64,000 nucleotides of DNA from Callorhinchus milii (Eukaryota), in contig NW_024704759.1 of assembly GCF_018977255.1 (NCBI RefSeq), positions 5,332,001 to 5,396,000 of the forward strand, given 5' to 3'. Position 1 is the stretch's first letter. The number at the start of each line of letters is the position of its first letter. Below are positions 10,401 to 16,400 of the stretch, in pieces. Below the pieces are notes generated by a model, which saw only the letters and a list, made by a program, of their open reading frames with translations, was not told the origin of the DNA and searched no databases. Position numbers and translations under genes: made by a program.

Positions 10401-13400
10401 CCGTGCTTTGCAGTCAGATACTGTCGCAGCTGCTGCATCAACCATTTACAGCCCTAGGGGAAGGAACAAAGTCTGCTGTGAAGGATACTGTGAAGTGCTT
10501 TTTGCTGTACAGTTTATGGGTGAACTGCCCTAGCCAGGCAGCAATGTCCCGCAAACTGCCGTGAAGTGAATGACCAATTTTATTTGGGAGATTTGTTGGT
10601 CAGGACACGGGAGAAACTCCCTTCTTGACTAGTGCTATTGGATCGTTAATGTCCACCTGAACAGGCAGACATGGTTTAACATCTCACCTGAAGGACAGCA
10701 CCTCCAACAATGAACAACAACAACAACTTGCATTTATATAGTGCCCTCCACGCCGGGTGGCATCCCAGAGCACTTAACAATTGCGGAGCTGAGCCAGGGT
10801 GAGGGGGAAGGTGACCATAGGCATGATCGAAGAGGAAGGTCTTCAGAAGGATCCTGAAAATGAGGAAAGAGGGGGTAGGGTGAAGGGATTGAGGGAGGAA
10901 GTTCCATAGCTTTGGGTCGTAGTGGCTGAAGGCACGGCCGCCAATGGTGATGTGGAGGATTCGAAGGATGAGGAGGCCAGAGCCAGTAGAGTGGAGGCAG
11001 CGGGTAGTGCTGTGAGGAGAGAGGAGGTTGGACAGCATCTCCAACAATAAAACACACCCCCAGCACTGGAGTGTCATCTTAGACTATGTCATAGAATCAT
11101 AGAATTATACAGCACAGAAAGAGGCCATTCGGCCCATCATGTCTGTGCCGGCTCTTTGAAAAAAGCTATCCAAATCAATCCCACTACCCCACTTCCTCCC
11201 CATTACCCTGCAAAGTTGTCCTCGCCAAATAATTATCTACTTCTCTCTTAAAAGTGATTATCGGATCGACTTCCACCACCCTTTCAGGCAATGCATTCCA
11301 AATCCAAGCAACTCGCCGTGTGAAAAAACTTCTCCTCATTTCCCCTCTGTTTCTTTTAACAACTATTTTAAATCAGTGTCATCGGGTTACCGACGCACCA
11401 CCAGTGGAAATAGTTTCTCTTGGTTCACCCTATCGAATCCCCTCATAATTTTGAAAACTTCTATTAAGTCTCCTCTTAACCTTCTCTGCTCCAAGGAGAA
11501 TAATCCCGGCTTCTCTCGCCTCTCCTGATAACTGAAGTCCCTCATTTCTGGTACCATCCTGGTAAATTTCCTTTGCACCCTCACCAGTGCTTTGACATCC
11601 TCCCTAAAGTGTGGTGCCCAGAATTGAACACAGTCTCTCGCTGAGGCCTAACCAGTGTTTTATAAAGGTCCATCATAACTTCCTGACTTTTGTATTTTAT
11701 GCCCCTATTTTTTTTTGGAGGGATTATTTACTATTTATAAAGCCCTTTACAAATATCCCTTTTCTAACAGATTTATCTATCTGTCCTACCACCTTCAAAG
11801 ATTTACTCATATGAACTCCCAGGTCTCTTTGTTCCTTCACCCCCTTTAAGATTCTACCGTCTGGCTTGTATTGCCTCTCCTCATCCCAATATGTATCATT
11901 TCACATTTCTCCACATGTGATTTCAAATCCTGACGTGAGACTTGAACCCTCAACCTTGTGACTCAGAGGGGAGAGTGCTACCACTGAGCCAGACGGACAC
12001 AGTTCTTCACAGATTCTTGAAAGACAGTGATGAGCAAAGGACATTAAGCTCCAAAGGCGAGCGCAGCATGAAACAGTTTGAAAAACGCTGTGCTAGATAA
12101 ACCAAACTTATTGTCTTGCAGGTCCTCCACACAAATGTAATTTAGTACATTCACATCTAGTCACAGTGATGCAGTTTAATACAAACACTGATCCTGTAAT
12201 TTTATTATCTTCTCCAATAGAACTTGCTTCCATTTCACATTCAGTACAGTAGGACTTACCTTCTCTGGATCATAGTCAGGAGCAGTCTTCTGCACTGCAA
12301 CATTTGTGAGATGTACAACTACATAAGATTCAGGTTAAGGATGAAAAAATAAACAACAACAAATTACGAGAAGATGTCCCAAGGCGCTGGTCAGTTGAGG
12401 GCTTCTACCCGAATTGGGGGTTGGATTCGAGAGGGGGGGGGGGGTGCAAAGGGGACGGGGATAGAGGGTACACAACTACACTGAACCACTGAGTGAATCA
12501 TATATGAACCCTACTCCCCGATCGTAGATGTGTTATAATTATATCTTGCATTTATATAGCACCATTCATGTAAAAGAAACATCTCAAAATGCTTTACAAA
12601 ATATAATCGATTAGAAATGGAAGTGAATGTTGCTATATAGGTAAACATGGCAGCTAATCTGTACCATCAACAACATGTAAACATTAAACTGAAATAAAAA
12701 TTATTAATGGTTTAATTAAACTAAAATTATTTGAAAATCAATATCAACTATCATGCTAAGAAATCCAGGTAATTTACATAATACTGTATATATAGTAATA
12801 AACAATGCACACCATGCTAGGAAAGGTCATGTGTCTAATCCTTGGCCTGTGTTAAATTACCCCATCTTTACCAAGAAGCAGTAGCAAGTACGAAATTCCT
12901 TTGATTATGTTCAATTATTCAATACTAGCTATACCCATTGCAGCTTCGCTTGCAACCAAAGGATCCAATATAAAATGTAGATTGACACAAAGACACACAG
13001 ACAGACATTTCATGTTTATCTATACTCAGCTGGAGGACTCCAGTGGGGGTACTCTTTTTGGGAGAACTACGCTAACCAAAGGGGTTTACTACATGATCCG
13101 GCAGGTTCTTGAGTTATTGCAAGGCTTTCGTGTAGACAACATTTTCAATTTTTCCTCCTTTGGCCATGATGTACAGGTTTTGAGATGAACCCACACATGA
13201 GCATCCAACATAAAATTTGCCCTCTCCTGTCCATGTGTCAGAATGACAGGGTGTCGAAGTCCAGTCGTGCTGTTCTTTGTTCTTCAGTTTAATTTAATCG
13301 GCCTTCTCTCTTTTGGCTTACATTTTTATTTGTCCTTGAAAGGCTTGATCTTTGCTTCTTTGGCATCTTCCCTTAAGATTAAGAAAAAGTGCTATTGGAA

Positions 13401-16400
13401 GGACTCCTGTGAGAGAACTCCCGTTGGGAGGACTGAGTGGGAAGACTCAGTGGGAGGACTCCTGTTGGGAGGACTGTAGCTCCATGACAACCTGATAAAA
13501 CTGCCATACATTTGTTGCAGAGTATAGATATATCTCTTTAGAAGGGTGTGTGCTTTCCTCTGCCACTACTTTGTTGCAAAATATTATGCATACCTAATAT
13601 TTTGGGGCTTAATTAAAGCATTTTTTAAATATAGCCCATCAATGAGAGGAGATCCCCGAAAAAAAAATGCCTATGACACTCCTGCATGCAAGACCTTTCC
13701 GATGAGGTATAAATCATCTCACTATGATTATTGGCGGAAACACAGACACACACACACTTTGTTTTTATTAGTATAGAAGATTAGCTGTACCCATTGCAGC
13801 TACGCTTGTAACCAGGACTGTTTGTGGGACATTGCTGTGCGCAATTGGCTGCCGCGTTCGCCCACAAATATACAGTCAATTCACTTTACAGTGTGTTCTG
13901 TGAAGCGCTTTGGGACGTCCTCCTGACGTGAAAAGCGCTATATCAAATGCAAGGATTATTATTATTATTATTATTATTATTAATCGGCCTTCTCACTTTC
14001 GATAGCATTTGTATTTGTCTTTGAAAGATTTAATCTTCACTTCTTAGGCATCTTTATTCCTTAAGATTAAGAAAATGTGCTATTGAACTTGTTAACATCC
14101 CTTGTTCACATATTTGTACACATATGCTTTTGGGAGGATTCCTGGCACACAGACAAATATTTTGTCTTTATTAGTATAAATGTATGTCTGTAGAAGGGTG
14201 TGATCTCTGTCGCTATTTTGTTGCTGAATACCATGCATACCTTTTTTGTGGCTTAATTAAAGCAAATATATTTTTTAATATAGCTCATCAACAATAGGAG
14301 ATCCCCGAAAAAAATATGCCCATGACACTCCTCACACAAGACCTTTCTGATAAGGTATAAATCATGTCTCTACATCAATCGATTATTGCATTCTTGACAG
14401 ACAGACAGACATTTTGTCTATAAGTATAGATTGTTATGCAAGAAAGGATACAATTATCATCGATGCTATTCAGGGAAAATCGGGTGCTTGAAAACCGAGC
14501 AAATCCATCTCTGTATAACCAGGTTTTCAGAGGGGCATACTGTAGAGAGAAACAAATTTGACCAATCTATGTCCACCTGCAGCCAACTATTCCTCCTCAT
14601 TGTTTACTACGTTCCCAAGTTTTGTGTCATCTGCAAACTTTAAAATTTTCTCTCTGCTCCTCTCTGAATCCCTCCCTCTCTCTCCCCCTCTCCAGTCCCC
14701 CTCTCCCATTCATCTCTCTCCTCCCTCAATCACCTTTCTCCCAAACAGCCTTGCGGTTCACTATCTGCGGTGGCAGGAGCCAGCAGTTGCTAAGGACACG
14801 GTGGATAAGAAGATGTGCTTGCTTTCCCCTCAGCTCCAATACACATAGCAGTAACGGACTGCATTATTTCCACTCTCCGCGTCACGTTCCCCCCCACCCG
14901 CCAGCTCCTGTCACTGCCATGGAAAGATGTTCACCAAGAAGGGAGGGAACAGAAGTTGGAAATGGTCTCGGGCCGGATAAAATCACCCGTCAGCCGCGTG
15001 TGTCCCACGGCCACCTGTTGCACCATGTTGCTTTAATTAATCAAAATTATCAGTTTGTAAGTGCAGTTTGTATCATTGTGACAAGAATGAGAAATGTTTA
15101 TGTAAAATCTACTTACAGAGGTCACCAGTACATAAACCCGCAGGTCAAACTTTCTACCTGTGAACAAGCAAAAACCACAATAACAATGTTAGTGTTAACA
15201 TTGCCTCAAACTGAGCAAACTTAACTATTCCTTTCCTACTGATGGTAATGGAGTCCAGAGATATTCCAGGTTGTGTCTATCTCCAATCAGAGATTTGCAT
15301 GTCAGTCTGGCTCAGTTGATAGCACCGAGTGAGATAGTGGTGGGTACAAGCCAAATGTCGAGATTTTTAATTCATCGTCAAGGCTTAGGTTAACACTCCA
15401 GTGCAGTTCTTCATTGTTGGAGATGTTATCTTGGATTGAGTTTCTCAATTGACCAACAATCCCCCCAATTAAAAATTTGATCACTCTCTTCAGGAATATT
15501 TATGGGACATTGCTGTGCAAAAATTGGCCAAGGTCACTGACAAAATACACAATCATTATATTCCACCCTCGATTCCAGGACCAATGTTGTTCTGATCGAT
15601 TCCATGTTAAACATTAAGTCCTGAATGAGAGTTAATTTTCTCCAGTTGAATTTTGGCAAGACAAAACTCTACTGCTTAGCTTCCATCAGCACCTTCTCCC
15701 CTCAGGTACTGAGAGCATCAACCTGAATGGACACACAATCCACTTGCAAGGACCTAGTGCAGAATTGGTGTCTTGTTCGACTCTTAACTGTCCTTTAAAC
15801 CCCACATCTATGCCCTGATCCATTCAGCATCCCCCTACCTCTGCAATGTTGCCCACCTTTGCCATTGCCTCACCCCTTGAGTCAGCAAGAACTTTATCCC
15901 TGCATTTATCATGTCCAAGCTAGACTATGCTAACTATACTCATCAGACTTCCCAACTCTTCCCCCACAAGCTGCAGACCATCTTTAATTCTGCAGGCTCC
16001 GCAAGCCTCCCCCTATCCTCACCTGGCTCCACTAGCTCCCATCCCTCAGAGGATTGAGTTCAAGATCCTTATCCTCACTTTTAAATCCCTCCTGGTCTTA
16101 TCCCACCCTACCTTTGTGACCTTCTTAAACTCTGACAACCTACCCACTCCCTCCAGTTGGCAGGCACTTGCCTGCTACATGCCGTTCTTCTTGCCAGCCC
16201 CCTTGTTTCTGTTAAAATCCTGTGAAGCATTTTGAAATGTCTTCCTGATGTTAAAAGGTGCTATGTCAAATGTAAGGATTTTAATATATACTTCTGGCAC
16301 ACCACTGTAGCTTAGATACCCCAGGCACTGTCTCCCCTCCATCAGAGAGATCACCCAAGCACAGTCTGCACTTCCTCCTCTAGAAGACTTTTAATGATTG

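Follow-up and report, generated by a model that had tools for sequence, protein, structure and literature searches.

How did two Helitrons come to lie head to tail within one intron, only a few bases from its splice donor, and has their presence there mattered to the host gene? The question is posed by a stretch of 64,000 nucleotides (nt) from Callorhinchus milii (NCBI RefSeq assembly GCF_018977255.1, contig NW_024704759.1, positions 5,332,001 to 5,396,000 of the forward strand; the window in what follows), in which a gene of the TTL family carries, in a U12-type intron, a compound element at 12925..14430 on the minus strand. The answer proposed here is that the two parts are, quite probably, different and broken non-autonomous Helitron units of separate subfamilies that became joined secondarily, in this intron or before reaching it, rather than the paired products of a single transposition event.

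Ends and layout of the compound element

Read on the minus strand, the element begins after a host A at 14431 with TC at 14430-14429 and finishes with CTAG ending at 12925, which is followed by a host T at 12924; no target-site duplication is visible at these ends (14430 and 12925). Insertion of a Helitron between A and T, without duplication of the target, would leave such an arrangement, and the outer ends stand as a preliminary description of the locus had given them. A second TC occurs at 13777 and a CTAA at 13781, so that both units have the 5' TC and 3' CTRR ends expected of canonical Helitrons. The terminator at 12925..12955 consists of an imperfect hairpin at 12955-12938 (18 nt, 7 base pairs with one bulge, 13 nt from the end), a 9 nt spacer and CTAG, to be compared with a canonical palindrome of 16-20 nt at about 11 nt from the 3' end. 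No inverted repeat pairs the two ends of the element among the 10 inverted pairs of at least 14 nt. It is on these ends, together with contig depth (see below), that the description as a compound non-autonomous Helitron of two different units between host A and T is based.

The relationship between the units is clear but uneven. Positions 13777-13294 align with 14430-13980 at 68.9% identity with gaps (E 5e-49), and within and beyond this alignment a shared 5' block (84.4% identity, 243 columns), a shared block around the start of the open reading frame (ORF; 84.6%, 104 columns) and the 3' ends (30 of 34 columns identical, 88.2%) are much alike, whereas the middles are only 65.9% identical with 44 gap columns; expressed as K2P distances, the contrast is 0.18 in the shared blocks against 0.46 in the middle. 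That two diverged units are present was thus correctly recognised at the outset, but they are not joined seamlessly as then supposed: three extra nucleotides, TCT, a copy of the element's own first three bases, lie at the junction (13778..13780, minus strand). This follows from placing the family's 5' end at 13777, since, among the long pieces listed from other copies, the two that extend this far both stop at 13777/13776; neither has a 3' end in front of it, and in one other copy the 5' end is preceded by A.

The upstream unit in this orientation, unit 2 (13781..14430, minus strand), comprises a 5' TC end with a GTCT microsatellite, an inner 5'-like end, a relic of the start of the RepHel protein, a short interspersed element (SINE), and a 3' end with weakened hairpin and CTAA. 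Unit 1 (12925..13777, minus strand) has a 5' TC end, an inner 5'-like end, a minisatellite, fused relics of the RepHel N- and C-termini, and the 3' hairpin with CTAG. The inner 5'-like ends, at 14180 in unit 2 and 13528 in unit 1, occupy the same relative place and are a trace of earlier end acquisition. The minisatellite, of a type belonging to unit 1, has a period of 13 nt and extends over 13398..13475 (minus strand; 13425-13475 as detected), with a related direct copy at 13068-13024, which bears out the internal repeats originally noted at 13398-13475. In unit 2 the SINE (13812..13982, plus strand) is truncated at its 5' end, has an (ATT)n tail, and takes the place of the sequence that would otherwise connect the ORF start to the 3' end, with a 3-nt microhomology at 13812-13814 and loose contig ends at 13812 in all four of the sequencing runs examined. 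Being 96.7-98.1% identical to its five best other copies in the window, it must be much younger than the units, and its description as a young SINE interrupting the second unit holds. The five copies lie at 37940-38109, 17860-18018, 34996-35146, 33042-33194 and 52562-52706, alongside many older fragments. An inverted copy of the 5' terminal motif is found at 13018..13026 (plus strand), beside a GTCT microsatellite (12985-13007) and about 95 nt inside the 3' end; near it, positions 13010 and 14387, on opposite strands, are brought together in a single contig of run X1. The element shows no sign of a captured fragment of a host gene.

The contigs just mentioned are those of four of 24 listed runs (including X1, X5, X6 and X8), aligned to 12200-14620 at 80% likeness; X1 is from organism A, the same organism as the window. 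Contigs of X1 span both outer junctions, with 5 differences in 412 positions and 1 in 262, so that the insertion is seen outside this assembly as well. Given this, and given that the units are only about 84% identical, it is unlikely that the duplication is an assembly artefact.

Relics of the RepHel protein

The preliminary description had reported helicase peptides between 13114 and 13262. The C-terminal relic, which extends from motif VI of a Pif1-type helicase as far as the natural stop codon (13114..13255, minus strand), is indeed matched to RepHel C-termini: in a six-frame blastp search against 119 listed RepHel-like proteins it aligns to their extreme C-terminus; with a hidden Markov model (HMM) built from 118 C-termini it ranks first in the window at 43.4 bits, against 4.9 for the next; and an exhaustive phmmer search gave 12 matches, of which 7 end in or contain a Helitron-type helicase C-terminus. 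A profile of six phmmer matches and the relic picked out 5102 of the 8000 proteins scored, many of them with PF14214 and PF05970, and against the PDB this profile has the Helitron transposase Helraiser (7LCC) as its best match (E 1.8e-9). A word-indexed protein search with the relic peptide gave no matches. A comparison with Rfam gave two sub-threshold matches, which were disregarded. Atlas neighbours of the peptide are unnamed eukaryote clusters at 0.94 and UvrD_C_2/Herpes_Helicase at 0.87-0.90.

The peptides translate as first described, but the reading of GLRHPVILT as the homologous frame is rejected. In RepHel-like C-termini the residues before HGQ are C in 116 and F in 117 of 117 proteins, P-C-F-S being nearly invariant, and in the window the P-C codons share their frame with FYVGCS further downstream; the relic therefore carries 15 extra nt net, not an 11-nt insertion.

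The start of the same protein had been missed altogether. The second match in the blastp search places 13366-13259 on RepHel residues 1-36 (best identity 47%, to RepHel P0033, E=0.003), and no other position in the search reached E<0.3. An HMM of 13 N-termini puts this segment first in the window (17.3 bits, against 5.9 for the next), a score reached by none of 1000 shuffles. Unit 1 thus contains a relic of RepHel residues 1-36 with one internal stop (13259..13366, minus strand), fused to the last ~45 residues, the Rep domain being deleted. Unit 2 contains a start relic (13980..14051, minus strand) with an ATG at 14051, a stop at codon 5 and a later frameshift, recognised by its 84.6% DNA identity to the ORF-start block of unit 1; the N-terminal HMM did not detect it. 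Since both units keep the first codons of the RepHel ORF, they are internal-deletion derivatives: unit 1 is an autonomous-type Helitron lacking almost its whole ORF, while unit 2 keeps the same start in decayed form. Taken with the canonical ends, A|TC and CTAG|T, the homology to both ends of the protein identifies the element as a canonical non-autonomous Helitron, in agreement with its original assignment.

A multi-copy family shared with two relatives

In all four runs the summed contig depth climbs from about 10-60 on either side of the element to hundreds or thousands within it, and in all four it returns to flank level beyond the bins holding 12925 and 14430. Inside the element the sum is 12-fold to more than 1000-fold that of the flank in runs X1, X5 and X6; compared with single copy it is about 900-, 230- and 190-fold in a microsatellite-free 5' bin and 25-, 22- and 12-fold over the helicase relic, none of these values being a copy number. 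By this measure one is dealing with an interspersed multi-copy family, as a canonical Helitron should be. Most aligned records are 80-95% alike, the likeness classes being dominated by SINE records. Middles of unit-1 type occur at place 13496 in 27, 14, 17 and 11 contigs, and both these and middles of unit-2 type (pieces from 14130-14149) are present in other contigs of organism A and of two relatives, organisms B and C. Shorter deletion forms, with joints 13033-13256, 12955-13284 and 13033-13450, were seen in three of the four runs, and the last of these joints lies between two direct minisatellite motifs.

An exact 31-mer index listed 24 runs, 11 of them with a portion of unit 1: organism A accounts for seven (share 0.04-0.38), organism B for one and organism C for three (0.04-0.06 for B and C). 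At the host locus B and C differ from the window at 54 and 57 of 419 positions (13-14%, i.e. about 86-87% identity), and in them the family is present at comparable depth. Their contigs cease to align near 12863, 61 nt short of the insertion site. It was also observed that organisms B and C have no alignment to part of an AT-rich intron stretch at 12619-12863.

The split between chimaera families is put at about 187 million years in PMC12952989, so that if B and C belong to other chimaera families the Helitron family would predate it. That Helitrons exist in C. milii is already known, and the present family is an ordinary kind of element: a supplement of PMC6817897 gives 0.14% class II elements and 0.0068% Helitron for this genome (~67 kb), holocephalans having been described as nearly devoid of DNA transposons, and in PMC4350176 Helitrons are reported from all vertebrate groups surveyed except birds; the supplement of PMC3964593 contains no mention of the word helitron. 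In the literature covered (subscription papers, Repbase and Dfam lying outside its scope) no description of a holocephalan Helitron family was found. The depth data suggest that the published C. milii figure is several-fold too low.

A considerably more tentative proposal, and one that should be regarded with some doubt, is that this is an overlooked Mesozoic holocephalan family of about 1000 or more copies, older than the chimaera-family split, and that the heterodimer may record RepHel joining an incoming 5' end onto the resident 3' end of another subfamily. If that abundance and age are right, the annotated repeats of a slow-evolving vertebrate genome that serves as a reference would need correcting, and the family would rank among the older Helitron bursts of vertebrates that can be dated, its shared insertions being usable as markers among chimaeras. 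The fused first and last RepHel codons provide probes for the autonomous parent.

The host intron

The exon upstream of the insertion (14452..14539, minus strand) belongs to a TTL-family gene (Pfam PF03133, E=2e-4), and the frame stays open on joining it to the downstream exon (12260..12318, minus strand). A PDB search with the exon gave weak TTLL-family matches and an Atlas search gave no name. The more specific name TTLL9 is that of the earlier label and is best taken as probable, the domain search supporting the TTL family only.

The intron between them (12319..14451, minus strand, 2133 nt) is of U12-type GT-AG class. As criteria, an RTATCCTT donor and a CCTTAAC branch site near the 3' splice site were used; the intron has a donor GTATCCTT at 14451 and a branch site TCCTTAAC at 12341-12334, the branch site motif occurring only once in the whole intron. 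The array takes up 70.6% of this intron and its near end lies 21 nt from the donor, which agrees with the preliminary description. Since the donor and branch site were spared, the insertion would presumably have been tolerated.

Run X8, which is probably RNA (this status being a guess, with none of the 24 runs listed by the 31-mer index recorded as such), contains a contig of depth 6.02 that covers both exons and none of the intron bases next to them; the bin means, 5.35 and 1.63, are what a depth of 6.02 gives if precisely the exonic portions of those bins are covered. The contig matches both exons exactly, the splice joint itself not being among the rows listed, and the genotype of the X8 individual may differ. 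As this probable RNA contig covers the exons only, it is likely that the intron is still spliced normally across the Helitron.

Weighing of the alternatives

If a single rolling-circle event had produced a two-copy concatemer whose copies then diverged in place over a very long time, the minisatellite changing, 3 nt arising by slippage and unit 2 losing its helicase relic in a deletion linked to the SINE, one would have a ready explanation for the head-to-tail order and for the shared architecture, in which the inner 5'-like ends of the two units correspond in position. Helitrons are known to give rise to tandem arrays and to precise head-to-tail junctions (PMC5876387 and PMC4778049), 43 arrays being reported for X. 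laevis in PMC12001565, and the distance between the units, 0.18, is only slightly above that between A and B/C at the locus. However, one template predicts units that were initially identical and a precise junction, while what is found is different middles, diverged far more than the shared blocks, and three extra nucleotides; moreover, each middle type is present in multiple copies in three organisms, which is not expected from the divergence of one pair in place. Because the units belong to two multi-copy subfamilies, the single concatemer implied by the preliminary description is not favoured and is judged unlikely, and it is the recurrence of both middle types in several contigs of three organisms that argues for two subfamilies joined secondarily. 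Several observations do weigh against this preferred account. As the distance between the units lies so close to that between A and B/C at the locus (13-14%), age alone is compatible with one ancient concatemer. No listed contig crosses 13777-13781, so that the evidence for the inner junction is that of the window itself; a joint from ~12925 to 14430, as an empty site would give, is not found among the 15 joints listed, a further 1208 lying outside that listing, and A|T flanking was observed in only one other copy (the A before its 5' end). The hairpin exists where it had been described, but on its own it is not a signal above chance (z = -0.22, with 127 of 2000 shuffles equally good). On the protein side, 6 of the 12 phmmer matches were set aside, five of these (P0002, P0004, P0007, P0010 and P0013) being unrelated repetitive proteins; P0003, a tandem helicase-like repeat protein, was left out of alignment A2. 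A direct search with the relic peptide gave no PDB matches, all three element peptides gave none in Pfam, and no autonomous partner was found.

Two further suggestions concern not the pairing but the position and provenance of the element. That the insertion was kept because it altered splicing or 3'-end formation of the host gene might be argued from its sense orientation 21 nt from the donor, from four AATAAA motifs and two weak U2 donor-like sites within it, and from the presence of human TTLL9 in a list of U12/U2 twintron genes (PMC3564746, at gene level). It is nevertheless very unlikely: the donor and branch site are intact and both lie outside the element, the probable RNA contig is an exact match to both exons, the ORFs of the relics are broken, and landing no more than 21 nt from the donor, in an intron of 627 nt, is a post-hoc event of about 3%. 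The nearness looks incidental. Recent horizontal transfer of the family into this lineage from another animal, raised as a possibility at the outset, would have precedents in other vertebrates (PMC12001565), and most named RepHel-like matches are invertebrate. Yet, of the 24 listed runs, those with exact 31-mers came from organism A and, with shares of 4-6%, from two relatives; these are about 86-87% identical at the host locus and have the family at a comparable depth. It must be remembered that such an index finds near-identical DNA only and bears on recent transfer, not on an old transfer into a common ancestor. Over the C-terminal 35 residues the best of 117 listed proteins agrees at 22 positions and the median is 18. 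Exact DNA pattern scans gave no loci in viruses, none in prokaryote genomes and none in one scan of metagenomes, and eight loci in a second metagenome scan, none extending beyond ~28 nt; these are short matches lacking a RepHel match (one, L001, lies inside a bacterial-type ORF) and are attributed to chance. As far as these comparisons go, recent transfer has no support, and it is considered very improbable.

Possible routes to the pair and comparison with known systems

On the reading of two subfamilies joined secondarily, the pair was probably made by one unit inserting at the end of the other. A lost autonomous parent would have supplied RepHel in trans, and the units would have been mobilised by nicking at the 5' TC and termination at the hairpin and CTAG, as in Helraiser (PMC4778049); that RepHel acts by single-strand rolling-circle chemistry is inferred by analogy from PMC4778049 and PMC5876387. 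Unit 1 might then have inserted at the A|T formed by the CTAA end of unit 2 and a host T; by a second route, the units might have been paired already at a donor locus, transposition then reading through the damaged inner terminator and carrying both along, much as Helraiser is described (PMC4778049) as bypassing a defective end. The spread of the family would be older than the divergence of organisms A, B and C, with vertical inheritance since, the SINE being inserted in unit 2 later.

With canonical Helitrons of the Helitron1 type (Helraiser/Helibat1; PDB 7LCC; PMC4778049) the element shares the 5' TC, the 3' CTAG and the C-terminal RepHel helicase motif, and apparently the A|T insertion and a hairpin ~10 nt before the end, here degenerate; it differs in being non-autonomous, with ~1400 of the ~1500 codons typical of the listed full-length RepHels missing, and the C-terminal tail of its relic resembles invertebrate-type RepHels more than Helraiser. 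The closest parallel to the layout is provided by the multi-terminus Helitrons of maize, which likewise have an inner 3' end with damaged CTAG and extra inner 5' ends. According to PMC3288121, 28.7% of helAs have multiple termini and 17.6% multiple 5' ends; of 100 inner 3' ends sampled, 99 are without an intact CTAG, and the explanation given is that Helitrons inserted into or close to others and that the compound then moved as one. Compound Helitrons with damaged inner ends are already known as a mechanism; the chimaera pair differs in its vertebrate host, in showing no detected captured gene fragment and in having only 3 nt between its units. Tandem arrays of Helitrons (known from X. laevis, PMC12001565, and, through citations in PMC5876387, from plants and bats) share the head-to-tail order, but here the units are of different subfamilies with three extra nucleotides at the junction. 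Helentrons/DINE-1 (PMC4067079) also have a GTCY-type microsatellite near the 5' end and internal tandem repeats, but possess subterminal inverted repeats in a TT site where the chimaera element has TC/CTAG ends in an A|T site, with a hairpin, unlike theirs, preceding the CTAG. Identity with Helentrons/DINE-1 was accordingly rejected on the lack of an inverted repeat pairing the ends, the A|T site and the CTAG end.

Other features of the window

Elsewhere in the window, a single-exon PPP1R3D-like ORF of 594 residues with a long low-complexity N-terminal region lies at 2236-4020 (plus strand); its protein clusters at >=90% with Callorhinchus milii proteins, which places the host among Callorhinchus-like holocephalans, and its listed relatives are ~300-370 residues long (in a search limited to 128-410 residues). 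A minisatellite with periods of 34, 68 and 102 nt occupies 21644-22504, just before a GC-rich region. Assembly gaps at 38846-39169, 62811-63464 and 63743-63767 contain 1003 N in total, and none touches the Helitron; between two of them, at 63467-63683 (plus strand), is an RRM-type exon that we take to be RBM24/RBM38-like. Relics of reverse transcriptase and endonuclease resembling those of long interspersed elements, presumably L2/CR1, are found with broken frames at 29423-29962, 43497-44248, 54555-59828 and 61073-61850.

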